The notes beneath the pieces are model-generated. The model was not told the origin of the DNA. It worked only from the letters and a program-made list of their open reading frames with translations, and did not search any database. Positions 3,682-35,348 of a stretch of 64,000 bases of DNA are shown here, one piece after another. The stretch's first letter is position 1. Each line of letters opens with the position of its first letter. Position numbers and translations under genes: made by a program. This DNA comes from Fibrobacteria bacterium (GTDB lineage: Bacteria; Fibrobacterota; Fibrobacteria; UBA11236). The DNA is taken from the NCBI GenBank assembly GCA_043745805.1, contig JAYTSD010000001.1, positions 67,680 to 131,679 of the forward strand, in the 5' to 3' direction.

Positions 3682-4461
3682 TTGCCAATGACAAAGTCGA
3701 TAAAACTTATACTTCCATTCATCGCTCTTTTATTCGCAATGCCTCGGTCTTTACTCGCTATTGAAACTTCAATACTTAATTCAAAAATGGAAAGTGGTTT
3801 TGCGATAGTGGAGCTTTTTACCTCCGAAGGTTGTTCGAGTTGTCCACCTGCCGACCGTTTACTTTCCGATTTAGCCGAAGAGGCCTCGCGCAAAGGCAAA
3901 CCTATTTATGCCTTATCCTTTCATGTGGATTATTGGAATTATTTGGGCTGGAAAGATCCCTTCGGCCGCAAAGAATTTTCTCTAAGACAAGAAAAATATG
4001 CCCAAGCAATGGCAGGCCGCATTTATACTCCCCAAATGATTATTAATGGGAAAGAAGAATTTACGGGTTCTGATGCCGATAAAGCTAATAGCATCATTGC
4101 CTCCCAGTTAGCGCAGAAAAACCCAGTAGCTATTAATTTAGAAGTTCAACTTGCGCAGGGAAAACATAGCGTAACCATAAAGTATCGTATCGCAGGTAAT
4201 ACTTCTGGGATTTTGATCAATTTGGCATTGGTTGAAAAGGGCTTAAGCATCTCGGTAAAAAATGGAGAAAATGGAGGGCGTATTTTACATCATGATAATG
4301 TTGTCCGCTCCTTTAAAACCTTTAAACTGGAAGCGGCAACCGGACAAGCTGAACTCGAAATTCCAGAGGGTGTAAAATTGGAAAACGCTTCATTAATCGT
4401 ATATACACAAGAAACGCAATCATTGTCTGTGGTGGCCGCTACACGTATCGGTTTACATTGA
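3682..4461 (+). CDS. DUF1223 family thioredoxin-like secreted protein
   Basis: 259 aa with a signal peptide and a CSSCPPAD CxxC motif after a beta-strand (ELFTSEGCSSCPPADRLL), plus the HVDYWNYLGWKDPF segment typical of DUF1223. Confidence 0.6.
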   Translation: MPMTKSIKLILPFIALLFAMPRSLLAIETSILNSKMESGFAIVELFTSEGCSSCPPADRLLSDLAEEASRKGKPIYALSFHVDYWNYLGWKDPFGRKEFSLRQEKYAQAMAGRIYTPQMIINGKEEFTGSDADKANSIIASQLAQKNPVAINLEVQLAQGKHSVTIKYRIAGNTSGILINLALVEKGLSISVKNGENGGRILHHDNVVRSFKTFKLEAATGQAELEIPEGVKLENASLIVYTQETQSLSVVAATRIGLH

Positions 4462-4634: not shown

Positions 4635-5456
4635 ATGAAAAAACTTCTCGCCTTCTTAATAGTAACTTACGCTATTCCGGTACTTGCAGTGCATTCTTAT
4701 TTCACTTTCAAGGGCGTGATTGGGATCGTTACGGGTAATGACAGTGCTTCCTATGTTTATGCCCAGAATATTCATGTTAACGATTCGGTTACCTATATTA
4801 TGGCCATTGATACGACTTTGGCACCGGCTATTGATAGAAAAGGATTCGCGAGAATTACTTCTACTAAAACACCTGTACCTGGAGTCGCTGCTTTTTTTGA
4901 CTCTTTAGCTTCAATTCCTAAATTTGTTAAAGGCAAAGGGGATTCCTCTATCTTGTACGATTGTATTCGCGCCTCGGCGCCACCTACTGGCTTTGCATTC
5001 ACCTTACAAACTATATATACCGGCATTGATACCAACATCAACGTACAACTTTCATTTCCTGGATCTTCATGGTTACCTTCCTTAGGCGCCCAGGGAACGG
5101 GAGCAGAAATTATGGCTACCAAAGTAAATGGGGTGAATCATACGGCGACTATTTACAGTCAAATGAAATTAGTTGCGATTAGCAATACACCGCCCACTGC
5201 AGGGATTCAAAACCAAACTGTAAATAAATTGTCCCCCGCTTGGGCCGATGCACAGTTGGTCGGAAATACTTTGAATATAAAGAATTATTCTCAAAGTTCA
5301 GCCGAAATACGTATCCTGAATGTTACGGGTAAAACTTTGCGCTTGCAAAAAATAAAAGCTTTGGAAGCATTAGTTTTGTCCGAGTTACCCAAAGGGGTAT
5401 TTTATTTGCGCCTTTCCGGTGAAGGCTCAATTTTGCAACAATCCTTTAGGCATTGA
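4635..5456 (+). CDS. secreted protein with probable T9SS C-terminal sorting domain
   Basis: 273 aa with a signal peptide. The C-terminal ~70 aa (LNIKNYSQSSAEIRILNVTGKTL...LPKGVFYLRL) resemble a Por/T9SS CTD. Confidence 0.5.
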   Translation: MKKLLAFLIVTYAIPVLAVHSYFTFKGVIGIVTGNDSASYVYAQNIHVNDSVTYIMAIDTTLAPAIDRKGFARITSTKTPVPGVAAFFDSLASIPKFVKGKGDSSILYDCIRASAPPTGFAFTLQTIYTGIDTNINVQLSFPGSSWLPSLGAQGTGAEIMATKVNGVNHTATIYSQMKLVAISNTPPTAGIQNQTVNKLSPAWADAQLVGNTLNIKNYSQSSAEIRILNVTGKTLRLQKIKALEALVLSELPKGVFYLRLSGEGSILQQSFRH

Positions 5457-5613: not shown

Positions 5614-6288
5614 ATGAAAAACCAAAATATTGTTTTAATTAGTGTCATCAGCTTGAGCTTAGGTTTAAGTTTTGCGGAAAGCAAATATGGCGCGAGCCTT
5701 AAGTCGGCAGCTACTTCCGCAGGCGCTTCTGTTGAAGCAACCAAGAAAAAGGCAGAAGATTCTGCAAAAATGGTGGCGGAGTCAGCTGCCAAAAAAACTT
5801 CAGATTCTTTGAAGACCGTTGCGGCAACTGCTGAAATGAATGCCAAAAGAATCGCAGACTCTTTAAAAGCAATAGTTTTAAAAACCCATAAAGATTCAAC
5901 CAAAAAAGTTACTCCGGCCCCAACATCTGCGCCTGTTGAAAATACCAAGGTGGAAACCACCGCTCCAGCCCCTGTCGCCAAAGCTAGCGCTTCTGCAAAA
6001 ATTGCTTTTGGAACCTCGGTGGAAGATAAAGAAATCCAAGGGGAAGCTACTGAATTTGCAGCGGGCACCGTAAGTACTTGGAGCCGTTTAGCTTTAGGCG
6101 CTGGTGCGGTTAAAGTGAAGCATGTTTGGTATAAAGAAGGTAAAATGGTTAAAGAAATTGCCATGACTAGTAAATCCGGTACGGGTCGGGTTTGGAGTAA
6201 CGCTACGGTTACTGCTGGTAAATGGAAAGTGGAAGTCGTTTCTGAAGCAGGTGACATTGTTGCTTCTGGCGAATTTACTGTAAAGTAA
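5614..6288 (+). CDS. secreted Ala/Lys-rich protein with C-terminal beta domain, unknown function
   Basis: 224 aa with a signal peptide, a low-complexity A/K/S-rich middle and a conserved-looking C-terminal ~90 aa (WYKEGKMVKEIAMTSKSGTGRVWSNATVTAGKWKVEVVSEAGDIVASGEFTV). Confidence 0.45.
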   Translation: MKNQNIVLISVISLSLGLSFAESKYGASLKSAATSAGASVEATKKKAEDSAKMVAESAAKKTSDSLKTVAATAEMNAKRIADSLKAIVLKTHKDSTKKVTPAPTSAPVENTKVETTAPAPVAKASASAKIAFGTSVEDKEIQGEATEFAAGTVSTWSRLALGAGAVKVKHVWYKEGKMVKEIAMTSKSGTGRVWSNATVTAGKWKVEVVSEAGDIVASGEFTVK

Positions 6289-6336: not shown

Positions 6337-6370
6337 ATCCGAAGTGAACAAAAACAGCTTCGGATTTTTT
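6337..6370. terminator. rho-independent terminator (bidirectional)
   Basis: Hairpin atccgaag...cttcggat followed by a T-run. It sits between the convergent 5614..6288 gene and cheB. Confidence 0.6.
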
Positions 6371-7526
6371 ATGCATGTTTTAAAGCTGGGCTTTTATTTT
6401 TTTCTTTTCTTGATGCGGCCAGCTGTAAAATTTTCCTGGAAATTTGTTGAAGCGGTAATATATGATTTGCGGCTCCAAGAACAATTGCTTCTTTAGGCAT
6501 TCCAAAAACTATCGAAGACGCTTCATCTTGTGCAATTGTAGCTGCTCCGGTACGCTGCATTTGCAATAACCCTTGTGCACCATCTTTACCCATTCCTGTA
6601 AGTAAAACTCCAATTGCGGTGTGAGCTGCATACTTTGCAACGGATTGAAATAATTCATCGACGGAAGGCCTATGTCCATTTACTAAAGGACCAGATCCAA
6701 TATGAACACGATAATTAGGACCCGAACGATAAACTTTCATATGATAACTTCCGGGGGCTATTAAGGCGCGACCAGGGACTACAAAGTCTCCATCGGCAGC
6801 TTCCTTGACTTCAATATTGCACAAATTATTTAGGCGTTCCGCAAAGGATCGAGTAAAATGTTGCGGCATATGTTGCACAACTAATAGTCCTGGAGTATTG
6901 GTAGGTAAGGTGGTTAATAAACTTTCAATCGCCTGAGTTCCTCCTGTGGAAGCTCCAATGGCAATCATGGAAGCAGAGTTTGCGGAAGAGGAAAAATTAT
7001 GATTCTCAGAACAGGGAGTTTGGGCGTTTTTTTCTTTAATAAAAAACTTAACCTGCGCAGCTGATTTTATTTTTTCCCGCAATTCAAAAATCATTTCCTG
7101 TTTTGAATAGGATAAATGGGGTTTGCATAATACTTCTACGGCCCCTATATCCATTGCTTTTAAGGCAGTTTCACCACCAAGCCGACTTAGAGAAGAAACA
7201 ATAATAACTGGAAGAGGGTAATGTTGCATTAGGCATTGTAAAAAATTTAAGCCATTCATACGCGGCATTTCTATATCTAAAGTAAGAACATCGGGTTTGA
7301 GCTTTAAAATCAATTCCCTAGCAATAAAGGGATTCGACGCTACACCAACTACTTCAATATCTGGATCAAGGGCTAATTGTGAAGAGAATACTTCCTGAAT
7401 AATTGGAGAATCGTCGATGATTAAAACTCGAATAAGTTTGTGATTAGTGGGATTCGATTTTAAAAAAGTCTTTTGCACAGAGCTATACAAGGCAAATGCC
7501 ATGCCATGATTTAAAAAAAAGCACAA
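6369..7526 (-). CDS. cheB: chemotaxis response regulator protein-glutamate methylesterase CheB (orphan copy)
   Basis: An N-terminal REC domain (LIRVLIIDDSPIIQEV...DIEMPRMNGL) followed by a CheB methylesterase domain (GASTGGTQAIE...GMGKDGAQGL...VFGMPKEAI). The true start is probably an internal Met (MAFALYS...). Confidence 0.8.
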   Translation of the reverse strand: MCFFLNHGMAFALYSSVQKTFLKSNPTNHKLIRVLIIDDSPIIQEVFSSQLALDPDIEVVGVASNPFIARELILKLKPDVLTLDIEMPRMNGLNFLQCLMQHYPLPVIIVSSLSRLGGETALKAMDIGAVEVLCKPHLSYSKQEMIFELREKIKSAAQVKFFIKEKNAQTPCSENHNFSSSANSASMIAIGASTGGTQAIESLLTTLPTNTPGLLVVQHMPQHFTRSFAERLNNLCNIEVKEAADGDFVVPGRALIAPGSYHMKVYRSGPNYRVHIGSGPLVNGHRPSVDELFQSVAKYAAHTAIGVLLTGMGKDGAQGLLQMQRTGAATIAQDEASSIVFGMPKEAIVLGAANHILPLQQISRKILQLAASRKEKNKSPALKHA

Positions 7527-7674
7527 TAGACACTTCTGAAGGTATTTTTGAGGTTACTGTAATGTTTTCGAAAATTAAGGGGTGGCTAAATAATCAACCC
7601 TTTAGGGCTTGATTCTAATAAGTCCAAGCTTTTCGGGTAGTTAAAGAAAAATGTGTTTTAGGCACTGATAAAAA

Positions 7675-8469
7675 TTAGGCAGCCTTTTGATCTGAAACCG
7701 AATCTGCTTTTTCTCTCTTGGAAGTTATTGTATTTAGATTTTTGAGATAATCTTCTATTTGCCGTGGAGATGGGGTTACGTCTACTTTGTTGATTTCGCG
7801 AGAAGAAAATATGACAAGTAAAAAGAAAAGAAAAAGTCCAATTACAATTTGCCCTGTAGTGCGACTTTCTACAGCTACACTTGCGCTCGCTTCATCTTGT
7901 TTATTTCTTTTCATAGCAAGGTTTACTGCAACATCAATTTTATTGCGATGTAACTTGTAAAGGGGCTCTATTTTGTTGTTTAAAATTTGTTCCGCAAGAA
8001 GTTTGTTTCCAGCTTCGATGGCAGGTAAAAATTCTTTTTCCATAATTTCCACTAATTGAAATCCAGGAATATAGGAATCGTTTGTTAGCGAGGTTTTGAG
8101 TTCATCATCGGGTAAAATTTTAACCCAAGTATTATGATTGAGCACGTAATCTACTTTCAATTTTTTCGCTTTGTTGAGTAATGTTTCCGTCTCTTGTATG
8201 TTACTGCTATGCAACAATTCAAAAAGGGTGAGGTAGGTTTCAACAAGGTATTCTGGCGGCGGCAGTATGTCCGCGATAACATCTTTGCCTTGCACAATCC
8301 GTTTATAATGCGGTCCATTCACTCGAACTTCCTGAACGGTGTTGAGGCAATAGAGCCCATAAAGCAAAAAACAAAACAGGTAAATAATGGCCATCAGGGC
8401 TATCTTTGTTGTTGAATGGGATTGGCGTGTGAAAAGTGCCATGCTTACCTCAATGTATGATAGGTTCAA
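7675..8469 (-). CDS. membrane protein with MCP-like periplasmic helical sensor domain but no HAMP/signalling domain
   Basis: 264 aa. One N-terminal TM helix, a ~170-aa helical periplasmic region (ILPPPEYLVETYLTLFELLH...) of the kind found at MCP/HK N-termini, a second TM helix, then only ~45 aa of cytoplasmic tail. Same strand as, and immediately upstream of, the orphan cheB. Confidence 0.45.
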   Translation of the reverse strand: MNLSYIEVSMALFTRQSHSTTKIALMAIIYLFCFLLYGLYCLNTVQEVRVNGPHYKRIVQGKDVIADILPPPEYLVETYLTLFELLHSSNIQETETLLNKAKKLKVDYVLNHNTWVKILPDDELKTSLTNDSYIPGFQLVEIMEKEFLPAIEAGNKLLAEQILNNKIEPLYKLHRNKIDVAVNLAMKRNKQDEASASVAVESRTTGQIVIGLFLFFLLVIFSSREINKVDVTPSPRQIEDYLKNLNTITSKREKADSVSDQKAA

Positions 8470-8554: not shown

Positions 8555-11470
8555 ATGTCTGCAAAAGATAAAGATTTAAAAAATAAACCCAGTTTACCTT
8601 GGTGGACATGGGTATTGCCTTTACTTATCTTCCATTTTGGTACGGGCCTATCTCTTAATTTTCAGATTTCTCAACGCATGTCGCTGTGGTATTTACCTGT
8701 CCCTTTGGGATTATTTCTCATTCATTGGTGGGGACCACGCGTTCTTTTAGGATTGTATTTAAATGCCTTACTTTGTGCGGGCTACTGGGGTTTTAATCAT
8801 TGGTGGTTTTGGCCACTTTATGCTTTACCCGAAACCCTGAAAGTCGGACTTTCTTGGTTGCTATTTACCAGAATTTTGAAAGGAAAAGTTTGGCTTCCTG
8901 ATTTATCTAACATGTGGCGTTTCCTACTCTTTGGCATGATTACTCCATGTTTTCTCGGCAGTGTTTTCGGAGAAGCATTATTTATAGTCTTGGGTGATTT
9001 TCATCCCGAACACTGGTGGCATGAGGCCTATGTGCAATTTGTGCTCGATATACTTTGCCCATTTGCTATCACTGTGCCGGCGCTCCTATTTGCCACCGCT
9101 TACATTGAAAAATTCAAGTTGTCTATGACACAAGGCGCGTATCCTTGCTCGGCGTTAGTATTATCAGGACGTATTACGCGGTTGATGATGTATGAAGTCA
9201 TAGCTTTATTTTCAGGATTACTAATTTTGAGTCTATGCGTTTCATTAGAAACGTATTGGTTCGTCTACGGTGTATTTTTGATTTGGGGGGCTTTACGTTT
9301 TGGTATTGGCGTGGCATCCATTGGAACGATATGGACTATTTGTTTGGCAATATTGTTTCCCGCTTTATTATCTAATCATTTTGCATCCTTATGGTTGACT
9401 CGATCGGATTTGCTTAAAGTCAATTTGAATTTGGCAACGCTTTGTTTTGCAGCCTTAGTCGTTGGTCGTGCCTTAAGTGATGTCTTTCAAGAAATCGAAA
9501 CGCGTAAACAGGCTGAATCCAGTTTAAAAATTAGCGAAAATAAATATCGACTATTATTTGAATCCGCTTCCGATGCCATTATTTTGGGAGATAAGGGAAT
9601 AATATTCGATTGTAATAAACGCGCCTTGGAAATGCTTGGGGCCAAACTTGAAGACATTATTGGTTCACATTCTTCTCGTTTTTTTCAATCACAATTGCCC
9701 GATGGTAGCGATGCTGTAACTGTCATGTCCAAGTTACGGTCGGAAGCCTTGGATGGCCACCCTCAATTTTTCGAATGGAAAGTAAAACGCCTTGATGGCA
9801 GCTTGATCAATACGGAAATAACCTTTAGAGGCGTGGATTTAGATGGGAAACGTATCATTATGGCCGTAATACACGATATTACGCAAAGAAAAAAGATGGA
9901 GCGGGCGGTTTTTGAAAGTGAATATCGACATCGTACTTTGTTTGAATCTGCAAATGATGCCATTGTAGTTTCGGAAAATGGTTTGATATTGGATTGTAAT
10001 CATCGCACCACCGAGCTATTTGGATTTACCCGTGAGCAAATGATAGGTTTTCCAGCCACTATGGGTTTTCCCGATTTCCAACCTAATGGAGTTCGGACTG
10101 CTGACTTAGTTCTCAGCCATCGTCTTGCGGCATTGGAAGGAACTCCGCAAAGCTATGAACTGTTACAAAAAAAAGCCGACGGTAGCACCTTTGAAACGGA
10201 AACTACTTTAGCCCCAGTAATTTTAGAAGGGCGGCGTATTATCCAAGTGGTGATTCGCGATATTTCGCAGCGCAAAAAAATAGAAAGGGCTTTGGTGGAA
10301 AGCGAAGAGCGCTTTAGGCAAATGGCCGAAAATATACAGGAGATTTTTTTCTTATTGGATAAAGCCACTCAAACCATGCTTTATGTCAGTCCGATTGCGG
10401 AATCTTTATTAGGTGTCCCTTTAGAAAATGTGATTAATCGACCTTTGGCAATTGACGAACGCATGCATCCGGAAGATAGGGAACGGGTAGGATTTTTTAA
10501 AGATGGGGCTTGGTATAAGCGTACATTCAATGAAGATTTTCGTTTTATTCGTCCCGACGGAGTAACTCGATGGTTACGGATGCGGACATTCTTGATTCCT
10601 GATAATGAAGGCCGTATTTACCGTGTAGCAGGTGTGGCAACGGATATAACCGAATATAAAACCGCACAGGAAGAGACGCGCAATCATCAACAAAAGTTAG
10701 TGCAGGCCGATAAAATGAACTCCTTGGGACAAATGGTTTCTGGAGTGGCTCATGAAATCAATAATCCGAATAATTTGATAATGTTGAATGCGGATGTAAT
10801 GGATACTTTTTGGAAACATTTACGCCCTGCGCTTAGAGATTATTTTGCTCGCTATCCCGATTGGAAACTTGCGAATATTCCTTATGACAAAGCGGAAGGT
10901 AAATATGAAACTCTCTTGCAGGGGATTACGGGTGGTGCAAAGCGTATTAAAAATATAGTTGATAATTTAAAAGATTTTGCACGAGTGAATCATGGGGATC
11001 TTTCTGAATCAATCGTCATAGAAAAAGTTATCGCTGCTTCTATAGGGATTGTGGATCATTTAATTAGAAAATCTACGAATCATTTCCAGGTATTGAACGG
11101 TGAAAATATTCCTCCGATTTTAGGTAACTTTCAAAAACTGGAGCAAGTAATTATTAATTTAATTACTAATGCTTGCCAAGCCTTGGCATCGAGTTCCCAT
11201 GCGATTCGTATTGAGACTTGGTTTGATAAAGAAAATGAAAGAGTAGGTATTCGCGTGGAAGATGAAGGAATAGGTATACCCGAGAATTTTTTGCGAATGG
11301 TTACCGATCCATTCTTTACCACGAAACGAGATAGTGGAGGAACGGGTTTAGGGCTATCCGTTTCCTATGGAATTATTCGTGAACATAAAGGTACTTTGGA
11401 AATTCAATCCCAAGAAAATCATGGAACCAAAGTGGAAATAATGTTACCTGCTAGGAATCCTAAGCTATGA
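8555..11470 (+). CDS. multi-PAS sensor histidine kinase with polytopic N-terminal membrane domain
   Basis: 971 aa. About 8 predicted TM helices (residues 1-300) and at least three PAS-like blocks. H-box SGVAHEINNPNN; N, G1 and G2 boxes (INLITNACQA, EDEGIGIP, GGTGLGLS). Confidence 0.8.
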   Translation: MSAKDKDLKNKPSLPWWTWVLPLLIFHFGTGLSLNFQISQRMSLWYLPVPLGLFLIHWWGPRVLLGLYLNALLCAGYWGFNHWWFWPLYALPETLKVGLSWLLFTRILKGKVWLPDLSNMWRFLLFGMITPCFLGSVFGEALFIVLGDFHPEHWWHEAYVQFVLDILCPFAITVPALLFATAYIEKFKLSMTQGAYPCSALVLSGRITRLMMYEVIALFSGLLILSLCVSLETYWFVYGVFLIWGALRFGIGVASIGTIWTICLAILFPALLSNHFASLWLTRSDLLKVNLNLATLCFAALVVGRALSDVFQEIETRKQAESSLKISENKYRLLFESASDAIILGDKGIIFDCNKRALEMLGAKLEDIIGSHSSRFFQSQLPDGSDAVTVMSKLRSEALDGHPQFFEWKVKRLDGSLINTEITFRGVDLDGKRIIMAVIHDITQRKKMERAVFESEYRHRTLFESANDAIVVSENGLILDCNHRTTELFGFTREQMIGFPATMGFPDFQPNGVRTADLVLSHRLAALEGTPQSYELLQKKADGSTFETETTLAPVILEGRRIIQVVIRDISQRKKIERALVESEERFRQMAENIQEIFFLLDKATQTMLYVSPIAESLLGVPLENVINRPLAIDERMHPEDRERVGFFKDGAWYKRTFNEDFRFIRPDGVTRWLRMRTFLIPDNEGRIYRVAGVATDITEYKTAQEETRNHQQKLVQADKMNSLGQMVSGVAHEINNPNNLIMLNADVMDTFWKHLRPALRDYFARYPDWKLANIPYDKAEGKYETLLQGITGGAKRIKNIVDNLKDFARVNHGDLSESIVIEKVIAASIGIVDHLIRKSTNHFQVLNGENIPPILGNFQKLEQVIINLITNACQALASSSHAIRIETWFDKENERVGIRVEDEGIGIPENFLRMVTDPFFTTKRDSGGTGLGLSVSYGIIREHKGTLEIQSQENHGTKVEIMLPARNPKL

Positions 11471-11510: not shown

Positions 11511-13148
11511 ATGTTTCGCCCAAGTTCTTCTATCGCTTTAATGGTTATTGTAACAATTGTAACAGTTATTACCTTAATATTAAGCTTATTTGGGTTTTCT
11601 AATTATAGAGTAAATCAGGAAAGAGAATGGAAACAGCTTAATCAAGATCTTGCTGCCGAATCAGAACAGGCAGCGGTTTCACTGGCCTTACCCATTTGGA
11701 ATATAGATAGACCACAAATCGAAAAAATCTTAGAAAGTGTCATGCTTAATCGTATGGTTTACGGATTGATTTTGGAGCTTGAAGACGAACACCACACGAC
11801 AATTCTTAGAGATAGGGATGAGAAATGGAGGGTTCGTATACCAGGACATTCGATTGAACAGGCTGGTTTATTGACGAATTCGAATGCTATTGCGACTGGA
11901 TCACAACTGCTAGGTCATGTTACCGTTTATGGATCGGCAAAGTTTATTGAAACAAATTTGCGAGCCTTTTTGTATTGGACTATTGCCAGTATTTTGTTGT
12001 TGGACATAATTCTTTCTTTAGGATTGTATTTCTTACTTTGGTACTGGGTTTTTCAGCCTTTGAAGAAAATTGAAAGTTACGCTGTAGCCCTTAATCACTC
12101 TGGCTCTGCGACGATTGGGATTTCGGGAGGTCGATTTTATGGTGAATTAGAAAGTCTGCGATCCCATTTGGAGCAAATGGTGGTTCAATTGAACATGCGT
12201 TATCTAGAATTACAGAAAGAAACCAAACAGCGAAAATTGACAGAAACGGCCTTGCGGGAAAGCGATAATCGATTTCGGCAAATGGCCGAAAATATTGAGG
12301 AAATTTTCTTTTTAATCGATCAACCCACCGAAGCCTTACTTTATTTAAGTCCTATTTCAATTTCAATTTTAGGTTATTCTCCTGATGAAATTATTCCGCA
12401 ATGGCAAGATTTTAAAAAATTCTGGAATACAGAGGATATGCAAAGAATTGGTTTTTATGATCATGGAGCTTGGTATAAAAAAGCCTTCAACGAGGAATTC
12501 CGTTGGAATCGTCCCGATTGGAAACCGGCAAATATTCCTTATGATAAGGCGGAAGAAAAATATGAAACTCTTTTGCAGGGGATTTCGGGCGGGGCCAAAC
12601 GTATTCAAAATATCGTAGGTAGTTTGAAAGATTTTGCACGCCTTGACGCAGGTGAAATTTCCGAGCCTATTCTGATAGAAAAGGTTATTGAAGCGGCCAT
12701 TGGAATAGTCGATCATTTGATCAAAAAATCAACTCATCATTTTAAGGTTGAAATTGGCAATAATATTCCTAGAATAAAAGGACGTTTTCAAAAACTAGAA
12801 CAAGTTATTATTAATCTTATTACTAACGCCTGCCAGTCATTGGAATCCCGCGAGAAGTCCATTTCCATTCACGTTTGCTATTCAGAAGATATCAAGAGGG
12901 TATGTCTTCGCGTAGAAGATCAAGGTTGTGGTATTACTGCAAATCTACTCAATAAAGTTACCGATCCTTTTTTTACCACTAAGCGAGATATGGGTGGAAC
13001 CGGCCTCGGTCTTTCGGTAACCTATGGAATTATTAAGGAACATCAAGGAGCCATAGAAATTCAATCCATTGAGCATTTGGGAACAAAGGTGGAAATTTTG
13101 CTTCCCATTTACCCAGAAAAAAATAAGGGGAATAATTATGCACCATGA
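11511..13148 (+). CDS. histidine-kinase paralog lacking the phospho-acceptor (H-box) helix
   Basis: 545 aa: TM, ~130-aa extracytoplasmic domain, TM, HAMP-like coiled coil, partial PAS, then directly the CA (HATPase) domain. Colinear with the upstream kinase except for a ~103-aa in-frame gap that removes the H-box. Confidence 0.7.
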   Translation: MFRPSSSIALMVIVTIVTVITLILSLFGFSNYRVNQEREWKQLNQDLAAESEQAAVSLALPIWNIDRPQIEKILESVMLNRMVYGLILELEDEHHTTILRDRDEKWRVRIPGHSIEQAGLLTNSNAIATGSQLLGHVTVYGSAKFIETNLRAFLYWTIASILLLDIILSLGLYFLLWYWVFQPLKKIESYAVALNHSGSATIGISGGRFYGELESLRSHLEQMVVQLNMRYLELQKETKQRKLTETALRESDNRFRQMAENIEEIFFLIDQPTEALLYLSPISISILGYSPDEIIPQWQDFKKFWNTEDMQRIGFYDHGAWYKKAFNEEFRWNRPDWKPANIPYDKAEEKYETLLQGISGGAKRIQNIVGSLKDFARLDAGEISEPILIEKVIEAAIGIVDHLIKKSTHHFKVEIGNNIPRIKGRFQKLEQVIINLITNACQSLESREKSISIHVCYSEDIKRVCLRVEDQGCGITANLLNKVTDPFFTTKRDMGGTGLGLSVTYGIIKEHQGAIEIQSIEHLGTKVEILLPIYPEKNKGNNYAP

Positions 13149-14583
13149 AATTTCAATACTTATTGTAGACGATGAAGAGGATATTCTTACTTCTGAAGAA
13201 TTGGTATTACAGATGAATGGCTATACTAATATTACTACTTGTTCGGATTCGCGAAAAGTGGAAAGTATTCTGAATAAGAATCCGAATAGCCTCGCCATTT
13301 TGGATATTACTATGCCGCAAATAGACGGTATAGAACTTCTTTCTCGGATTAAACACAATCATCCGCAAGTAACGGTGGTAATGATGACCGGATTAAATGA
13401 TGTGGAAACAGCGGTTCGCTGTTTAAAGAATGGGGCTCTTGATTATATCCTTAAACCCTTCGATCAAAATCGGTTTTTGACTTGTGTAAAAAAAGCGTTA
13501 GAGCATCATATTGTTTGTGATGAATCTATTCGTTTAGCACGCGGTGTACTCGAAGAGAATGTTATAAATCCCAAAAGTTTTTCTGCAATTGTTACTCAGG
13601 AAAGACGATTGGTTAATATTTTTAAATATATCGAAGCCGTAGCGCCAACGGGTTTATCAGTTCTGTTAACAGGGGAAACCGGTGTAGGTAAAGAATTATT
13701 TGCTAACGCGGTGCACTTGGCAAGTGGTCGAACTGGTGAGTTTGTTTGTGTGAATAGTGCTGGGATTGACGACGCCATGTTTAGCGATTCACTTTTTGGC
13801 CATGTTTCTGGCGCTTATACAGGTGCGCAAAAGGGTCGCAAAGGTCTTATTGATCGCGCTAAAAATGGAACCTTATTTCTTGATGAAATAGGAGACATGA
13901 AACCGGAAACTCAAGTTAAACTATTACGTTTATTACAAGAAGGAACCTTCTACCGCTTAGGTCAAGAGACTGAAGAAAGAACCAATGCTAGGATTGTGGC
14001 GGCCACTAATCGTTCCTTAGAGGAATTACAGAATGATCCCCGTTTCCGAAAAGATTTATTTTATCGCTTAAAAGCGCATCATGTATATATCCCTCCCCTG
14101 CGGGAAAGAATGAATGATGTGCCTTTACTTACCAATAGGTTTTTAGCCCAATGCGCCCAAGAACAAAACAAAGCGAAACCCACTCCCCCTCCAGAACTAG
14201 ATATTTTACTTTCCAATTATCATTTTCCGGGAAATGTACGCGAGTTACGTGGTTTGGTTTACGATGCGGTCAGTAGGCATCAGGGTGGAGTTTTATCCTG
14301 TAGCTCTTTTAAAGATGCAATCGGAACGAAACATTTAAGTAACGGTAACGTGAATAAAATGATTCCATTTAGTAAAGAAATACTTTTTCCATCCCCACTT
14401 CCTTCGGTTCGAGAAATAGAAAATGCACTTATTCGCGAAGCATTAAAACGAACCGGTGGTAATAAATCCTTAGCTTCGGAAATGATTGGAATGGCCCGCC
14501 AAACCTTTAGAACTAGAGTTAAGGAATTGCAGCCTCCTTGGGAAAATGCTGATAACATGGTAGAAGTAGAGGGAATAGACTAA
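13138..14583 (+). CDS. sigma-54-dependent two-component response regulator (NtrC family)
   Basis: REC domain (ILIVDDEEDIL...DITMPQIDG) plus a sigma-54 activator AAA+ domain: Walker A GETGVGKE, the GAFTGA-like motif GAYTGA, and ESELFGH-like SLFGH. C-terminal Fis-type HTH. The ATG at 13138 overlaps the preceding kinase by 11 bp. Confidence 0.85.
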   Translation: MHHEISILIVDDEEDILTSEELVLQMNGYTNITTCSDSRKVESILNKNPNSLAILDITMPQIDGIELLSRIKHNHPQVTVVMMTGLNDVETAVRCLKNGALDYILKPFDQNRFLTCVKKALEHHIVCDESIRLARGVLEENVINPKSFSAIVTQERRLVNIFKYIEAVAPTGLSVLLTGETGVGKELFANAVHLASGRTGEFVCVNSAGIDDAMFSDSLFGHVSGAYTGAQKGRKGLIDRAKNGTLFLDEIGDMKPETQVKLLRLLQEGTFYRLGQETEERTNARIVAATNRSLEELQNDPRFRKDLFYRLKAHHVYIPPLRERMNDVPLLTNRFLAQCAQEQNKAKPTPPPELDILLSNYHFPGNVRELRGLVYDAVSRHQGGVLSCSSFKDAIGTKHLSNGNVNKMIPFSKEILFPSPLPSVREIENALIREALKRTGGNKSLASEMIGMARQTFRTRVKELQPPWENADNMVEVEGID

Positions 14584-14632
14584 GTCTCCACACATTTTGA
14601 GTTTAAAATAGGGAATAAAGTCGTGGCTAAAT

Positions 14633-14647
14633 TTGGTCAATGACCAA
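14633..14647. promoter_or_regulatory. perfect 15-bp palindrome TTGGTCAATGACCAA (candidate enhancer/UAS)
   Basis: Read directly from the sequence. It lies ~185 bp upstream of the -24/-12 element, a typical distance for bacterial enhancer-binding-protein sites. Confidence 0.3.
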
Positions 14648-14817
14648 TTTTTATAAGCTCATAAATTCAATGGAGGCCCGTCTTATCTAGGGTTTGCTCA
14701 TTTTACAATAAAAATTAGCCACCCTTTTTTACCACACAATTGGAAATATGTTTTTTTGGGAGGCCTTAAAACGAGCTTAAAGGCGATTTTATTCAAATTA
14801 ATTGCAATAAAGAAAAA

Positions 14818-14833
14818 TGGCACAGGGCTTGCA
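14818..14833 (+). promoter_or_regulatory. sigma-54 (-24/-12) promoter TGGCACagggcTTGCA
   Basis: Exact match to TGGCAC-N5-TTGCA. It is ~55 bp upstream of the 14887 ORF and directly downstream of the NtrC-type activator gene. Confidence 0.6.
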
Positions 14834-14886
14834 TTGTAATCTCCTTGTAAAAGTGTTTCACGACGAATTGTTACTAAGAGGTTATC

Positions 14887-15216
14887 ATGGTAGGTTTGGA
14901 ATTGACAAGAGAATGTCAGACGGAATTTGAAGATGCCATTTTACAAATGGCACAAGAACTTATTCCTATTGCCCAATTAGTTTCTGATTTTCCTGAATGG
15001 AGTAAAGCTTTAGCGAAGGGATTTTTTGACCTCTCCATTTTATCCCAAAAGGGTGGAGAAAAGAAGATTTATTTTTCTGCAAGAGCATTTTCTCAAATAT
15101 TAAATCAATTACAAAAATCTCCGGAAGAAGATATTCCCTTTATCCTAAGTAAAGGAATTGAATTTTTGAATTCCATAATTATTGAAAATAAAATAAACTC
15201 CATGAGGAGTTTATAA
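14887..15216 (+). CDS. hypothetical small protein (first gene of sigma-54-driven operon)
   Basis: 109-aa ORF with no recognisable motif. Tightly followed by cheW. Confidence 0.4.
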   Translation: MVGLELTRECQTEFEDAILQMAQELIPIAQLVSDFPEWSKALAKGFFDLSILSQKGGEKKIYFSARAFSQILNQLQKSPEEDIPFILSKGIEFLNSIIIENKINSMRSL

Positions 15217-15758
15217 TGGTTGATTTATTTGGAGAAGAATATTCACCTTCTAGAGGTGCAAAAATGGTAGATGGTAGATATTTCACTTTTCGTTTAGGGG
15301 AAGAGATATTTGGAATAAGCATACTTAAAGTACAAGAAACCTTAAGTGTTAATACCTTAAAGCAAGTTGCAAATTTACCTAAATATTTTAGTGGCATAAC
15401 TACTTTAAGAGGACAACCTATTCCCGTAATAGATTTACGTTTGAAATTCGGATTGGAAAGTCGCACGGCCAATAACTCTCCCTTTTCCCTAATTGTCGTG
15501 CAGCTTTCTACACCCATTATATTCGGTAAAAAATCAGAAAGTGCTTTAGCGCTTGCAATTGATGAAGAAACCGACATGGTTAATATATTGAATGGACAAA
15601 TCGAATTAAAATCCATTCGTGGTCAAAATCGGAATGGAACTTTACTATTCGGTATTGCGCGTATCCAACAAAAAGTTATTCGCTTATTGAATATTGATCA
15701 AATAATAAGCTTAGAAGATTGGGCAATACTTTTGAATTTGGAAATGGTTACGGAATAA
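15216..15758 (+). CDS. cheW: chemotaxis coupling protein CheW (second copy)
   Basis: CheW-like domain (RYFTFRLGEEIFGISILKVQE...LRGQPIPVIDLRLKFG). Confidence 0.8.
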   Translation: MVDLFGEEYSPSRGAKMVDGRYFTFRLGEEIFGISILKVQETLSVNTLKQVANLPKYFSGITTLRGQPIPVIDLRLKFGLESRTANNSPFSLIVVQLSTPIIFGKKSESALALAIDEETDMVNILNGQIELKSIRGQNRNGTLLFGIARIQQKVIRLLNIDQIISLEDWAILLNLEMVTE

Positions 15759-15759
15759 T

Positions 15760-16869
15760 ATGAATAATATGCACGCATTAATTGTTGACGATGACAAACA
15801 AGCATTAGATACCATGGGAATGATTTTAGAGATGGATGATTTTTTTGTCTCCAAAACCGAAAATGGTCAACAAGCTTTGGATTGTTTAACGGGATATGAA
15901 AATACGGAAAATACTGTTGATTTTTTGGTATTAGACTTAGAGATGGATACGCTTTCGGGAATCGAGTTACTCACAGAATTACGTAAACGTGGTAATATGA
16001 TTCCGGTTATGGTGGTTACGGGTTTTGCGTCTAGAAAAAATGTTATCAATTTACTTAGGCAAGGCGTTTTCGATTTTTTGGACAAGCCCATACGGATGGA
16101 AGAGTTTCGTTCGCATGTTCATCGACTGGCTAATGAAGTGCTAAATCGCCGCAAGGAGATTGCTGTTTTACCTGTCGTCACTCAACACCGTGCAGTTTCC
16201 GTTTTTGATTTAGGGAATTTAGGTTTCCCTTATACATTGCGTCGTCGCATTGATGTAACGTCTGGGAATCACCTGATTTTAGCAAATCGCAAGCGCTCAG
16301 GTTATGATATTCTTCTTGTAGAGGCTTTTGGGGCTGATTCAGAATGTTTTTATATGACCATGCTAATTAAAAACTATTTCGATAAAAATCGAACTTTAGA
16401 TACAGCGCCACAAAATTTTTTACAAGGTTTGAACCAGGTTATATTGGATGGATCCTTGAAATGTCGAGAAGTTAGGGCATTATTAATCCATCTTGGTAAC
16501 GCCGGCATACTAGAAGTCCTTCCTGCAGGTTACCCCACACGGATGTTTTTTGGACTTGGAAAAGATCAGCCCAGATTTTTGACTTTTTCTGGATTACCAT
16601 TGGGCGGACAAGCAACGGTTGGACAAATAAAATTTGAAATTCCTTATAAGCCAAACGATAAACTATTTGTCTTTGCAGAAAATAAAATCGCTTCGAATGG
16701 CGAAAAAAGCCTAGACGATACCGAAGAATTTTTGATGGCAGAAAGCGTACTAGGCCAAGGTCATGACTCTTTAGATGAAATGACGGATTCGATGTGGCAA
16801 AGAATACATAAAGAAATTAAAAATGCAAAAGTCAGTGATGGCTTTCTACTAGGTTTAACATTGCCATAA
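15760..16869 (+). CDS. response regulator with C-terminal PP2C/SpoIIE-like (possibly degenerate) domain
   Basis: REC domain (ALIVDDDKQALD...DLEMDTLSGIELL...VVTGF...K). The C-terminal ~230 aa have weak PP2C-like spacing (SGYDILLVEAFGADSE...), and the usual DVSGHG metal-binding motif is not conserved. Confidence 0.5.
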   Translation: MNNMHALIVDDDKQALDTMGMILEMDDFFVSKTENGQQALDCLTGYENTENTVDFLVLDLEMDTLSGIELLTELRKRGNMIPVMVVTGFASRKNVINLLRQGVFDFLDKPIRMEEFRSHVHRLANEVLNRRKEIAVLPVVTQHRAVSVFDLGNLGFPYTLRRRIDVTSGNHLILANRKRSGYDILLVEAFGADSECFYMTMLIKNYFDKNRTLDTAPQNFLQGLNQVILDGSLKCREVRALLIHLGNAGILEVLPAGYPTRMFFGLGKDQPRFLTFSGLPLGGQATVGQIKFEIPYKPNDKLFVFAENKIASNGEKSLDDTEEFLMAESVLGQGHDSLDEMTDSMWQRIHKEIKNAKVSDGFLLGLTLP

Positions 16870-16989: not shown

Positions 16990-19920
16990 TTGCAAAAATT
17001 TATTCCCGGGCAAAGATGGGTGAGTGAAACTGAGCCCGAATTGGGACTAGGGCTCATATTGGAAGTGGGCTTCCGTGAAGTCAAAATCTTATTTAAAGCC
17101 GCCGAAATGGAACGTATTTATATGCATCGTAATGCGCCCTTACGGCGTGTACAATTGCGTTCTGGGGAGCGCGCTAGAGCACGCGATGGACACGTTTTTA
17201 TTATTCAAAATGTGCAAGAAAAAAATGGTTTACTCACTTATTTAGGCAATGGTGAAAAATTAATTGAACAGGATTTATTAGACAGTTTAAGTTTTTCCGA
17301 TCCGGATAAACGCTTGCTCGCCGCGCAAGTGAGCAAAAATAAAGTATATGAGTTACGTCGCCAAACGCATTTGTTCCGTAGTGAAATGTTGGGATCTTCG
17401 GTGCGAGGCCTAACTGGCGGACGTGTCGATTTATTAGAACATCAAATTTATATCGCGCATACCGCCTCTTCACGTCACCGCCCGCGTTTGCTTTTAGCGG
17501 ATGAAGTAGGCTTAGGTAAAACTATTGAAGCGGGATTAATTTTCCATCGTCTTTTTGTTACGGGAGTGGTAAGCCGAGTATTAGTGGTTACCCCTTCGCA
17601 ACTCGTGCATCAATGGTTAGTGGAATTATATCGTCGCTTTCATCATATGTTCGCCATTTTGGATGAAGATTTATGTCGTGCCGAAGAAAAAGGTGATAAA
17701 CGGATCAATCCTTTTATGCAAAGACAATTAATACTTTGTCCCATAGATTTTTTAGCCGCTTCTCCTCGCCGTGTAGAACAAGCCGTAGCAGCAGGCGTGG
17801 ATTTGTTAATTGTCGATGAAGCGCATCATTTACAATGGTCGCCAAAGGCTCCCTCGCCGGAATATAAAGCGATAGAAGCCTTGGCGCAGTTGAGTCCTGG
17901 CGTTTTATTATTAACAGCTACGCCCATACAATTAGGTCAAGAAGGACATTTTGGACGCTTAAGACTTTTGGATCCCGACCGATTTTCGGATTTCGAAAAA
18001 TATTTAAAAGACGCGGAAGGCTATGCCGAATTAGCAAAACAAATTCATGCGTTGATGGATCAAAATGGTGCGAATACCGCAGCTGCGGATGCTTTAGAAA
18101 AAGCATATCCTCAGGATAGAGCTGTATTGGAAAAGCTGAAAGCTTATCGCGAAGGGCAAAAAGGATCGCGTGCCGGACTCATTGCGGATCTTATTGATCG
18201 GCATGGAACAGGGCGTTTGCTTTTCCGCAATCGTCGTGCGATTATGACGGGTTTTCCTCAACGTATAGTGGAAGAATCTCCTTTGGATAATGGGCCCGAA
18301 CATCAAGAGTTTACGCGCTTGGTTTTAGCGGGATCGGGTATTGGGAATGTAACGGAACTTACACGTTACCTTAATGGACCGGCGGCTTATACCGTAAGCG
18401 ATTTGCCACGCGACTTTCCGGAAGGCTCGGAATTTTTGCGTCAGGCTTGGCGCAAGGATCCACGCTTGCCTTGGCTGGTGGGACTATTACAGCATTTAGC
18501 GGAAGAAAAAATTCTTTTATTATGTTCCCATAAAAATACCGTATTCGCTTTGCAAGAAATTTTGCCAACCTTGATCACTGCTTCCTTTACCAGCTTTCAT
18601 GAAAACATGACTTTAAGCACGCGTGATAAGAATGCAGCCTATTTTGCTAATCCGGAAGGCGCTCGTTTATTGATTTGTTCCGAAATCGGTAGTGAAGGAC
18701 GTAACTTCCAATTCGCGCATCATGTGGTACTTTTTGATTTACCGATAAACCCGAGCGTGCTAGAACAGCGTATTGGCCGGTTAGATCGCATTGGTCAGCT
18801 TAGGGATATCCATATTCATGTGCCGTATATTCGTGGCACCGCGCATGAATTGTTGTATCGCTGGTATGCCGAAGGTTTAAATGCTTTTCAAATTCCCCTA
18901 CTAGGTTCGGATTACTTTTTTGATGCGCAAGGTAGTGATTTACGTGAAGAATGTCGCTTGGCTATGGAGGCAGAAATTAATGGTGCCTGGAATGCAAGCT
19001 TTGCAGAATCGGTGCAACAATTTTTACAACATACGCAAACACTTGCTGCTGAAGTACGACAAACTTTAGAAGCGGGTCGCGATCGTTTATTGGAACTTAA
19101 TTCTTGTAAGCCTGAGGTAGCGCAGGAATTAATTGCTGAAATTGAAGCGGCGGATGTGGATCCCAAACTCGAAAATTATATGGAAAGCGTTTTTGAACAT
19201 TATGGTGTGGATGTAGATACCACGGTGGTGGAGCGTGGACATTTTGTTTTTCCGGGACCACAAATGTTTATTGACACTTTTCCTTGTTTACCTGAAGATG
19301 GTTTACCGATTACTTATGACAGAGAAGAAGCTTTGATTCATGAAGATTTAGCTTTTATCACTTTAGATCATCCCATGGTGCGAGCTTCTGTAGATTTGAT
19401 TTTACAAGATATGGCAGGAACGGTTGCTTTCGTAGAATGGAAAAATGCGCCGAGTCAAGGCTTTGCTTTGGAAGCCATATTCTTACTCGAAGCTACGGCT
19501 CCAGGGCATTTGCATCTCGATAGATTCTTGCCGCCTACACCTATTCGCTTATTAGTAAATCAAAAATTGGAAGCCTTAACTCAGTGGTTACCTAAAATGG
19601 ATCAATTGATTTTGGAGAATGCGCCAACCTTAATGATAGAAGAGCAGCATAGTCTCTTTGAAGCGGTGATTCCAAAAATGCTTAAAGCCTGTTCCGAAGG
19701 CGCTGCTATTCTCATGGCTAATTTGAAAAAGGAAAGCTATGCAGAAGCCGAAAAAATGTTGGGTTCGGAACGCGATCGTTTGAAAGACTTACAATCTATT
19801 AATGCTAATGTATCCCAAACAGAAATTGTTACGGCTGAAAAATCCTTGCAAGAAATTTTGCAATATATCCGTGATGCGGAATTAAGATTAGACGCTGTGC
19901 GCTTGGTGTTGATGCGCTAA
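16990..19920 (+). CDS. rapA: RNA polymerase-associated SNF2-family ATPase RapA (HepA)
   Basis: 976 aa. The N-terminus (GQRWVSETEPELGLG) matches the RapA start. Helicase motifs GLGKTIEAG and DEAHHL, and a helicase C-terminal domain. Apparent TTG start preceded by AGGAGAGG. Confidence 0.85.
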   Translation: MQKFIPGQRWVSETEPELGLGLILEVGFREVKILFKAAEMERIYMHRNAPLRRVQLRSGERARARDGHVFIIQNVQEKNGLLTYLGNGEKLIEQDLLDSLSFSDPDKRLLAAQVSKNKVYELRRQTHLFRSEMLGSSVRGLTGGRVDLLEHQIYIAHTASSRHRPRLLLADEVGLGKTIEAGLIFHRLFVTGVVSRVLVVTPSQLVHQWLVELYRRFHHMFAILDEDLCRAEEKGDKRINPFMQRQLILCPIDFLAASPRRVEQAVAAGVDLLIVDEAHHLQWSPKAPSPEYKAIEALAQLSPGVLLLTATPIQLGQEGHFGRLRLLDPDRFSDFEKYLKDAEGYAELAKQIHALMDQNGANTAAADALEKAYPQDRAVLEKLKAYREGQKGSRAGLIADLIDRHGTGRLLFRNRRAIMTGFPQRIVEESPLDNGPEHQEFTRLVLAGSGIGNVTELTRYLNGPAAYTVSDLPRDFPEGSEFLRQAWRKDPRLPWLVGLLQHLAEEKILLLCSHKNTVFALQEILPTLITASFTSFHENMTLSTRDKNAAYFANPEGARLLICSEIGSEGRNFQFAHHVVLFDLPINPSVLEQRIGRLDRIGQLRDIHIHVPYIRGTAHELLYRWYAEGLNAFQIPLLGSDYFFDAQGSDLREECRLAMEAEINGAWNASFAESVQQFLQHTQTLAAEVRQTLEAGRDRLLELNSCKPEVAQELIAEIEAADVDPKLENYMESVFEHYGVDVDTTVVERGHFVFPGPQMFIDTFPCLPEDGLPITYDREEALIHEDLAFITLDHPMVRASVDLILQDMAGTVAFVEWKNAPSQGFALEAIFLLEATAPGHLHLDRFLPPTPIRLLVNQKLEALTQWLPKMDQLILENAPTLMIEEQHSLFEAVIPKMLKACSEGAAILMANLKKESYAEAEKMLGSERDRLKDLQSINANVSQTEIVTAEKSLQEILQYIRDAELRLDAVRLVLMR

Positions 19921-30901: not shown

Positions 30902-30909
30902 GGTGAAAC

Positions 30910-31389
30910 CTATTTTTCAGTTATAGCAGGTTCATTAATAGAGCATCGAATAAGCAATCCTTGATCATCTATGCTTAGTCTTAAAGTGTCAGGATCATTT
31001 AATAGTTCATTACCGGTCAGTGGATTCCAAAAGGTAACCTTGGGAATAGATAAAGAAAATACTACCTGCTCACCCGCATAGGTAGATAAAATATGCCCGC
31101 AGGCTACATTGAGCAATTCTTTCAAAGCATCTAATGATTTGGTAGGAAGATCTGGATCATCAATATCTTCACCGAGTATATTGGCTGCTAATTCAATGGC
31201 TATTTTTTGAGGTACCACTAAAATAAGTTCTCCAGTTGTATGTCCAGAAAAAGACATTTCGGCACAAAAATATTCAGTATCTGGATCAGGAAAAATTTCA
31301 GGTTCTTCAGGTTCGGTAAATAAAAAAGCTTGTTTTTCTAAAACTCCCGAAAGTACTTGATAGAGTAATTTAGTTGGAATGTTACGCAT
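30910..31389 (-). CDS. CheX/CheC-family CheY-P phosphatase (probable)
   Basis: 159 aa, acidic. Has the E..N.xxG motif region (ELLNVACGHILST) typical of the CheC/CheX family, and sits between cheY and cheB. Confidence 0.5.
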   Translation of the reverse strand: MRNIPTKLLYQVLSGVLEKQAFLFTEPEEPEIFPDPDTEYFCAEMSFSGHTTGELILVVPQKIAIELAANILGEDIDDPDLPTKSLDALKELLNVACGHILSTYAGEQVVFSLSIPKVTFWNPLTGNELLNDPDTLRLSIDDQGLLIRCSINEPAITEK

Positions 31390-31768: not shown

Positions 31769-31796
31769 ATTGTTTGCCTCTTCTGTTTATTTAATT

Positions 31797-32273: not shown

Positions 32274-32274
32274 T

Positions 32275-33075: not shown

Positions 33076-33108
33076 GTTACTGCCTTAAAGTTTTGAAAGC
33101 GTTGTAGC

Positions 33109-34770: not shown

Positions 34771-34806
34771 ACCTACTCCTTTATTGATTTTTAATTAAAA
34801 ATATTT

Positions 34807-35319: not shown

Positions 35320-35348
35320 ATTTTCCTTTCCAATAATATTTTCAGATA

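Follow-up and report, generated by a model that had tools for sequence, protein, structure and literature searches.

A sigma-54 promoter behind an NtrC-type activator gene in a Fibrobacteria bacterium is likely the centre of a three-promoter chemosensory regulon with a shared, phased enhancer

A sigma-54 promoter requires an enhancer-binding protein. In the NtrB/NtrC-type pairs (including FleS/FleR, FlrB/FlrC and FlgS/FlgR) this is an activator composed of receiver (REC), AAA+ and HTH_8 domains, which is paired with a PAS kinase and serves motility-related targets from an upstream enhancer about 80-125 bp from the -24/-12 promoter, in dependence on the face of the helix. Here we analysed a 64-kb stretch of DNA at ~40% GC (the window) from an uncultured low-GC relative of the Fibrobacteria known from metagenome-assembled genomes (MAGs). 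The same features recur there around a promoter, P1, located between the gene of an NtrC-type activator and a small operon encoding a 109-aa protein (orf109), a second CheW (CheW2) and a response regulator with a PP2C-like domain (the REC/PP2C-like protein). The targets of the described pairs are flagellar structural or nitrogen genes, whereas here they would be che genes. The locus also resembles that of Myxococcus xanthus, where the NtrC homolog CrdA and the kinase CrdS are encoded next to che3 and CheA3 destabilises CrdA~P (PMC3147164); there, too, a histidine kinase and an NtrC-like activator beside a che cluster tie a Che pathway to sigma-54 transcription. However, in the Che3 system the activator is the pathway output, CheY is missing and CheA3 contains a receiver, while the system described here includes CheY, CheX, CheD and a further response regulator, and its che operons themselves carry activator-type promoters. 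From comparison with related loci (labelled L001, L003, L005, L008, L009, L026-L029 and L128; GC-rich DNA, except L029 with 40% GC), we conclude that P1 is a real promoter and one of three sigma-54 promoters with a shared enhancer, and that it is likely the central promoter of a sigma-54-dependent regulon expressing the chemosensory system.

The first-pass annotation of this DNA had noticed an exact sigma-54 consensus before the small operon, and this was borne out. The box TGGCACagggcTTGCA occupies positions 14818-14833 of the plus strand (-24 GG at 14819-20, -12 GC at 14831-32), 54 nt before the ATG of orf109 at 14887; a ribosome-binding site, AAGAGG, lies in the gap, and transcription is predicted to start near 14844. 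Using the pattern TGGCAC-N5-TTGCW with ten bases between GG and GC as the membership criterion, it was the sole match without mismatches in the window. Chance alone would give 0.2 such matches per window, and 8 of 40 windows simulated under a Markov-1 model contained at least one. Taken alone, the P1 box is thus no more than suggestive; what makes it convincing is where it lies and that other genomes have conserved it.

Only three boxes in the window combined intact GG and GC with at most two mismatches, namely those at 14818 (+), 38227 (-) and 7506 (-). The second of them, P2 (TGGCATaatctTTGCA, 38212-38227, minus strand, one mismatch), precedes the main che operon cheA-cheW1-mcp-cheR-cheD-cheY-cheX-cheB1 (29831-38015, minus strand; identified by Pfam and by orthology at 42-66% identity). 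The third, P3 (TGGCATggcatTTGCC, 7491-7506, minus strand, two mismatches), precedes cheB2 (6369-7478, minus strand), which encodes REC and CheB methylesterase domains recognised by Pfam and whose product is 59% identical to the CheB of L026. A CCACCC motif was found upstream of the box in each case, at 99 nt in P1, at the same 99 nt in P2 and at 79 nt in P3, and the chance of three out of three boxes having CCACCC 79-99 nt upstream is about 1.3e-6. Three of the four occurrences of the longer motif KCCACCCYT in the window are these very sites. Furthermore, pairwise alignment of the P1 and P2 intergenic regions revealed shared blocks well beyond the sigma-54 box.

The conservation of these promoters extends to the relatives, whose che loci each contain three sigma-54 promoters, one ahead of the orf109 homolog (type a), one ahead of the last gene for a methyl-accepting chemotaxis protein (MCP; type b) and one ahead of cheR (type c). 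Boxes at these orthologous positions were present in L001, L003, L005, L008, L026-L028 and L128. Those preceding the orf109 homologs (L001, L026/L009, L027, L028 and L128) have been retained despite the gap in GC content and a protein identity of 30-35%. P3, being divergent from a kinase gene, occupies the position of the cheR-operon promoters of relatives. The probable start codon of cheB2 is the GTG at 7478, so its mRNA would be almost leaderless. The same is predicted for the c-type promoters, with the transcription start predicted 2-5 nt before the start codon (window 7476-7506, L026 ~5920-5951 and L027 7606-7638, all on the minus strand); lying so near the start codon, they would yield leaderless or nearly leaderless mRNAs. 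We also note that cheB is duplicated in the window (6369-7478 and 29831-30901, both on the minus strand, 57% identical), one copy standing alone behind P3 and the other ending the main che operon.

What the three promoters share upstream is a composite enhancer. We aligned 16 promoter-upstream regions from seven genomes (three from the window and 13 from relatives), and a block of about 110 nt could be aligned over all of them almost without gaps. It starts with unit A (consensus GCG(A/C)CCAAAWTYC), followed 18 nt further on by unit B (consensus CCGGCCAAAWTCGG, a near-palindrome), the short elements C (CTAA(G/C)CC) and D (TT(A/G)), and finally unit E (CCRAWWTnnKCCACCC(C)TT). In spite of the difference between the GC-rich relatives and the window, CCACCC and several A/T positions are invariant. 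In P1, the enhancer extends from 14621 to 14733 on the plus strand and comprises unit A GGCTAAATTTGG (14625-14636), unit B TGACCAATTTTTAT (14641-14654), C as TAA (14662-14664), D as TT (14682-14683) and unit E AAAATTAGCCACCCTT, with CCACCC at 14719-14724. A hidden Markov model (HMM) built from the alignment scored this copy at 47.7 bits and found exactly three copies in the window, the other two being located on the minus strand upstream of P2 (38305-38435, CCACCC starting at 38326) and P3 (7569-7707, CCACCC starting at 7585). The model also recovered copies in loci outside its training set, namely the a- and c-type promoters of L128 and the b-type promoter of L027.

While the internal geometry of the enhancer is fixed, the distance between CCACCC and TGGCA varies, and it does so in discrete classes of 79-81, 90-91, 99-101, 112-114 and 123 nt. 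The best-fitting period of this spacing was 10.8 bp (R = 0.83; p ~0.001 for unique distances, 0.014 for the five classes). The steps of about 10.8 bp point to helical phasing, i.e. to placement of the enhancer on one face of the helix. No IHF consensus site within one mismatch was found in any of the 16 enhancer-promoter spacers. To our knowledge, the enhancer sequence matches no described activator site. A pattern scan of metagenomes (CCACCCCTT-N68-98-TGGCAY-N5-TTGC) gave no target outside the che locus among the matches listed; one of the 120 stretches among them was a true enhancer, and this one (L128) was another copy of the che locus. In the b-type enhancers of relatives there is additionally an inverted repeat located between units C and D, with the sequence CTAAGCC-N10-12-GGnTTAG (L008 ~3700-3760, L001 ~8010-8060, L026 ~17610-17650). 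Both of its arms vary across genomes, and it may represent a second protein-binding palindrome.

A perfect palindrome, TTGGTCAaTGACCAA, had been proposed as the regulatory element of P1. It is indeed present at 14633-14647 with arms of 7+1+7, lying between the activator gene, 50 nt away, and the sigma-54 box, 171 nt away, but it does not behave as a conserved site. It reaches from the 3' end of unit A into the 5' end of unit B, and no palindrome was found at the matching position in any other of the 16 aligned promoters, P2 and P3 included. Eight perfect 7+1+7 palindromes were observed in the window against 7.1 +/- 3.1 in simulations, and relaxed copies likewise occurred at the chance rate. 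The palindrome is therefore best regarded, as far as the alignment can tell, as a by-product of the adjacency of units A and B.

These observations bear on the model of the first-pass annotation, according to which the activator binds the palindrome and turns on the small operon only, as a self-contained cascade in which CheW2 and a partner-switch regulator rewire an independently expressed array. In favour of this model, the palindrome lies at a plausible enhancer position and shares bases with the conserved units A and B, and the divergent paralog CheW2 is restricted to this lineage. However, the palindrome is not conserved, and the same enhancer and promoter precede both the main che operon and cheB2, so that the entire chemosensory system, and not the second CheW alone, carries enhancer/promoter units. 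Neither STAS nor RsbW-type genes, which a partner-switch module would include, were found in the window or in the clusters of relatives, and the PP2C centre of the candidate regulator is degenerate (see below). We thus consider the self-contained model very improbable.

The palindrome could have another function, since a terminator scan flagged 14633-14647 together with the following TTTTTAT. It might form a weak intrinsic terminator that ends the transcript of the kinase and activator genes (HK1-HK2-activator, described below) and insulates P1, without any role in activator binding. The RNA hairpin with its flanks has a predicted energy of -9.1 kcal/mol (z = -2.5) and would be formed shortly past the stop codon of the activator gene. 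On the other hand, its stem consists of only six pairs, three of them G-C, terminator-like matches in the region were at chance level (3 versus 2.3 +/- 1.5), L026, L028 and L029 lack a comparable terminator behind their activator genes, and the bases of the hairpin belong to conserved enhancer units. This explanation is rather unlikely in our opinion, although a terminator role and an enhancer role of the same bases are compatible with each other.

The activator gene (13138-14583, plus strand) encodes a protein with Pfam matches to Response_reg (95 bits), Sigma54_activat (189 bits) and HTH_8 (40 bits). By its sequence it has all the motifs of a working enhancer-binding protein: IVDDEE and ILDITMP with the receiver aspartate, Walker A (GETGVGKE at 179), GAYTGA at 225 (an F-to-Y variant of GAFTGA) and Walker B (GTLFLDEIG at 244). 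It could be assigned to no named equivalog family of NCBIfam, scoring 340 for AtoC (cut-off 714), 332 for NtrC (cut-off 559) and 239 for FlgR (cut-off 750), which again separates it from the described NtrC-type activators. Its orthologs are 60-77% identical (68-77% in Fibrobacteria MAGs), and the HTH segment EMIGMARQTFR is invariant among them. In six of six loci with this segment the enhancer follows the activator gene, among them L029, a locus of 40% GC whose activator is 62% identical. By contrast, a homolog from Chitinispirillum alkaliphilum (49% identical) has a different HTH and a downstream sigma-54 box, and no enhancer. No second enhancer-binding protein was detected by Pfam among the proteins encoded in the window. 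The earlier suggestion that the adjacent activator is the most likely regulator is thus supported, and we infer from adjacency and co-variation that it binds the enhancer.

It might also be that the conserved upstream element is bound by some other factor, either a regulator or an architectural protein, and that the neighbouring activator acts elsewhere. HTH_8 activators usually bind inverted repeats, while units A, B and E have a direct-repeat core CCRAAWT in common, which is unusual for HTH_8 dimers. In addition, since the spacers lack IHF consensus sites, some other element for DNA bending or architecture may be required, and in L001 no activator gene adjoins the promoter of the orf109 homolog. 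Against this stand the requirement of sigma-54 promoters for just such an activator, of which the window encodes no other, and the occurrence of the enhancer downstream of the activator in all six loci with the conserved HTH together with its absence where the HTH differs. We regard binding by another factor as unlikely, and retain the adjacent activator as the candidate enhancer-binding protein.

Upstream of the activator gene, two kinase genes are located on the plus strand. HK1 (8555-11470) is a sensor histidine kinase with MASE1, three PAS, HisKA and HATPase_c domains (Pfam). Over its full length it is 60% identical to the kinase whose gene immediately precedes the activator gene in L026 and L028, and we presume it to be the cognate kinase of the activator. 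HK2 (11511-13148) is a truncated paralog, 70% identical to the C-terminus of HK1, in which an internal deletion took out the phospho-acceptor H-box and left a HisKA match that is partial and falls short of the Pfam cut-off; HK2 therefore probably cannot autophosphorylate. It is confined to the window, as the relatives carry a single kinase and no HK2 counterpart. Divergent from HK1 lies a gene for a conserved protein without Pfam or NCBIfam match (7675-8469, minus strand), which is 48-49% identical to u227/u238 of L028/L026 and syntenic in relatives. The gene of this protein is always flanked by the kinase gene on one side and the divergent sigma-54 promoter on the other.

The arrangement in relatives explains how the small operon belongs to the remainder of the che genes. 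In L026, L027, L028 and L128 the order is: MASE1/PAS kinase, activator, enhancer and sigma-54 promoter, orf109 homolog, cheA and so on to the REC/PP2C-like gene, with a cheR-cheD-cheY-cheX-cheB operon divergent from the kinase-activator pair. The cluster itself consists of the small open reading frame (ORF), CheA, CheW, one or more unknown genes, one or more MCP genes, the REC/PP2C-like gene and a small HisKA/HATPase_c kinase. The orf109 homolog thus heads the cluster, and the REC/PP2C-like gene is second to last, followed only by the small kinase gene. Consequently, orf109 and the REC/PP2C-like gene are no accessories set apart from the main che operon, as had been thought, for in relatives they share one cluster with cheA, cheW and MCP genes. 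The window CheA (residues 262-857), CheW1, MCP, CheR, CheD, CheY, CheX and both CheB proteins are orthologs of cluster genes, with 42-66% identity in BLAST. In both the window and the relatives, CheA contains Hpt, dimerisation, HATPase_c and CheW domains only. An N-terminal extension of 261 residues in the window CheA (37233-38015, minus strand) has no counterpart in the CheA proteins of relatives (613-633 aa); within it, residues 127-217 make up a second Hpt domain, which is divergent (27-29% identity to the P1 domain of CheA).

Gene order and orthology thus indicate that the super-locus of relatives is present in the window in a rearranged and streamlined form. The cheA-cheW-mcp block has moved from between orf109 and the REC/PP2C-like gene to join cheR...cheB under P2, cheW2 occupies the position that cheA has in relatives, and cheB2 stays at the divergent promoter. 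Several genes of relatives are absent from the window, namely X318 (an unknown protein of ~320 aa, encoded after cheW), the small cytoplasmic HisKA/HATPase_c kinase that follows the REC/PP2C-like gene, two additional CheX, a stand-alone REC protein, an 81-aa ORF and extra MCPs (coordinates of such relatives-only genes in L026: 14494-15450, 20610-21404 and 1025-2695, with equivalents in L028).

The fact that the kinase-activator pair is syntenic with che genes in every relative also fits a scheme in the manner of Che3/CrdSA, in which the activator is mainly an output of the pathway, CheA acts on its receiver alongside HK1, and the che promoters are autoregulated within a wider regulon. The position of CrdA and CrdS beside che3 and the effect of CheA3 on CrdA~P in M. 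xanthus (PMC3147164) provide a precedent; this scheme also accommodates the enhancer data and could hold alongside the regulon proposed here. Nevertheless, the system has its own CheY, CheX, CheD and extra response regulator, and its CheA is devoid of a receiver. Moreover, every enhancer copy found precedes che genes, with none outside the locus among the pattern-scan matches listed. A mainly output role of the activator therefore has a low probability in our estimation, and dedicated control of the che operons is the interpretation followed below.

The content of the P1 operon was predicted correctly at the outset: orf109 (14887-15216) without any family match, a CheW (15216-15758) and a REC protein with a weak SpoIIE match (15760-16869), all on the plus strand. 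The three genes abut or overlap and therefore form one operon; a RapA gene follows on the plus strand. The family of orf109 is rare. Among 1.84 billion representative proteins, HMMER yielded nine matches, of which seven, orf109 included, are small (106-122 aa). orf109 is 34% identical to the ORFs preceding cheA in L001 and L009 (pairwise E-values 1e-20 and 6e-18). In relatives the homolog overlaps the start codon of cheA, and here orf109 overlaps the start of cheW2. No Pfam or NCBIfam match was found for orf109, and its only sequence matches in the PDB were designed helical bundles. The structure predictions that had been suggested as a check succeeded for the REC/PP2C-like protein and not for orf109, whose single-sequence AlphaFold model displayed four helices at low confidence (pLDDT 48) and was too poor to search with. 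Judging by this model and by gene neighbourhood, orf109 would represent an orphan all-helical family normally encoded directly before cheA. The conserved position overlapping the start of cheA (here cheW2) suggests that it is likely a subunit associated with the CheA/CheW complex. The protein contains no histidine. A reading of it as a histidine-less Hpt/P1-like domain was considered and rejected, with an hhalign probability of 0.35% to CheA P1 domains and no Pfam Hpt match in any of eight family members.

CheW2 matched the Pfam CheW family with 88.5 bits (cut-off 23.5). It is 39% identical to CheW1 and 36% to the CheW of relatives' clusters, while CheW1 is 62-64% identical to the latter, so that CheW2 is a divergent coupling protein, paralogous to CheW1. 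Like the accessory CheW of multi-CheW systems, it has a full CheW domain and is co-regulated with array genes. It differs from them in being specific to this lineage, given that the clusters of relatives hold one CheW, the ortholog of CheW1, and in its position at the site of relatives' cheA.

For the REC/PP2C-like protein, about 30 full-length homologs were found, with 41-50% identity and for the most part from metagenomes and Fibrobacteria MAGs. Its structure model (pLDDT 80) best matched RssB in Foldseek (3F7A/3EQ2, E ~2e-18; also 8TWD, 8T85 and 6OD1), and PP2C domains were matched as well (6K4E, target TM-score 0.61-0.63; 3PU9, 0.67), confirming a PP2C fold. At the sequence level, the SpoIIE score was 22.1 bits, below the Pfam gathering threshold of 25, many relatives carry a precomputed match to PF07228, and a profile built from the C-terminal domain matched none of the solved PP2C structures. 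Of 25 family members, 24-25 retain the receiver residues D10, D11, D59, T87 and K109. The PP2C catalytic residues were mapped onto a canonical REC-SpoIIE protein, in part by spacing. In this mapping, the equivalent of GGD is N, S or G in all 25 members, i.e. without an acidic residue, that of DV is D or E in 24 of 25 (E188 in the window), that of TDG is acidic in 12 of 25, and that of DD is D or E in 14 of 25. The protein thus seems to combine an intact receiver with a catalytically degenerate PP2C fold, in agreement with the atypical PP2C-like domain noticed initially.

In its domain plan, i.e. receiver, helical linker and PP2C fold, the protein is comparable to RssB, which in E. coli is the sigma-S adaptor to ClpXP and has been called a pseudophosphatase, and to its P. 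aeruginosa counterpart (3EQ2/3F7A) (PMC6546054). E. coli RssB likewise lacks the catalytic aspartates. The two nevertheless differ in several ways: identity is only 14-20%, the gene here belongs to a che cluster and not to a neighbourhood with rssA/rssC or anti-adaptors, and a link to RpoS/ClpXP is not known here. Neither RssB equivalog of NCBIfam was reached (53.5 versus 329 bits and 48.5 versus 700), and these matches cover the receiver only. A CheY-like receiver fused to a SpoIIE/PP2C-type domain is also found in P. aeruginosa HsbR and in RsbY of B. cereus, where the kinase RsbK upstream of RsbY is regulated via methylation by the methyltransferase RsbM (PMC4574943). In contrast to the protein described here, RsbY and HsbR are active and have STAS and RsbW partners encoded nearby. 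Judged by its metal positions, the REC/PP2C-like protein resembles E. coli RssB more than it does RsbY (PMC4574943) or the RssB of P. aeruginosa, which are both active enzymes. A phosphatase partner-switch is accordingly unlikely, and an RssB-like adaptor role is possible.

In the mechanism that we propose, HK1 would phosphorylate the NtrC-type activator, which would bind the ~110-bp enhancer made up of the near-palindromic tandem units A/B, elements C/D and unit E ending in CCACCC(C)TT. From this enhancer, which the observed spacings put on a fixed face of the helix 79-123 bp upstream of the -24/-12 promoter, the activator would remodel sigma-54 RNA polymerase via DNA looping, as its family suggests. 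With an enhancer/promoter unit before all three che operons, P1, P2 and P3 would switch the whole pathway on together. The REC/PP2C-like protein would most likely be phosphorylated by CheA and act through protein-protein contacts rather than by dephosphorylation.

A number of points speak against parts of this interpretation. The entire case was built on sequence comparison, and where the promoters of relatives are orthologous they share ancestry and are not fully independent samples. The link between activator and enhancer consists of adjacency and of co-variation with one negative case, and since the enhancer units partly look like direct repeats, another protein could bind some of them. The rpoN gene is not within the window. 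As for the REC/PP2C-like protein, the GGD-equivalent was located by spacing and the hhalign probability to canonical SpoIIE was only 37%; with one metal position acidic in nearly all members and an invariant aspartate, D193, residual catalysis is possible. Finally, the small histidine kinase encoded downstream of the REC/PP2C-like gene in relatives could be its kinase instead of CheA.

Elsewhere in the window, no flagellar genes and no known RNA families were found. Two genes on the plus strand deserve mention (4635-5456 and 44734-45645): one of the encoded proteins has a weak match to a type IX secretion system sorting domain (Por_Secre_tail, 23.2 bits, cut-off 27), consistent with membership of the Fibrobacteres-Chlorobi-Bacteroidetes group, and the other contains an Imm72 immunity domain, among ORFs without family match. 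The sorting domain and the orthologs of kinase and activator at 60-77% identity are the basis for placing the organism near the Fibrobacteria. On the minus strand, 1292-2890 encodes an extracytoplasmic function (ECF)-type sigma factor with DUF6596 and TPR domains, adjoining a YCII-family protein.

Control by sigma-54 and an activator, accessory CheW proteins and REC-PP2C proteins are each already known, and it is their combination that is new. Every operon of a Che system would be driven by a kinase-activator pair dedicated to it, by way of a repeated, phased enhancer whose sequence had not been described before, and the same system would include an orphan small protein whose gene normally overlaps the start of cheA as well as an RssB-like pseudo-PP2C response regulator. 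We regard it as possible, if on balance doubtful, that these features amount to a distinct Fibrobacteria-type pathway, with the dedicated pair acting on the phased repeated enhancer, orf109 as a subunit and an RssB-like pseudophosphatase output besides CheY. The locus would represent a compact, directly testable circuit, in which a single sensor kinase and a single activator serve three promoters through one enhancer grammar, in a poorly studied and mostly uncultured lineage. Its enhancer would be a clean natural example of the face-of-helix constraint on sigma-54 activation, kept between DNA of ~40% GC and GC-rich DNA. Both orf109 and the REC/PP2C-like protein are candidate components or outputs that would be new to Che-type signalling. 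If the distinct pathway is real, chemoreceptor input would be coupled to regulated proteolysis or sequestration of a target, an output undescribed for Che pathways.

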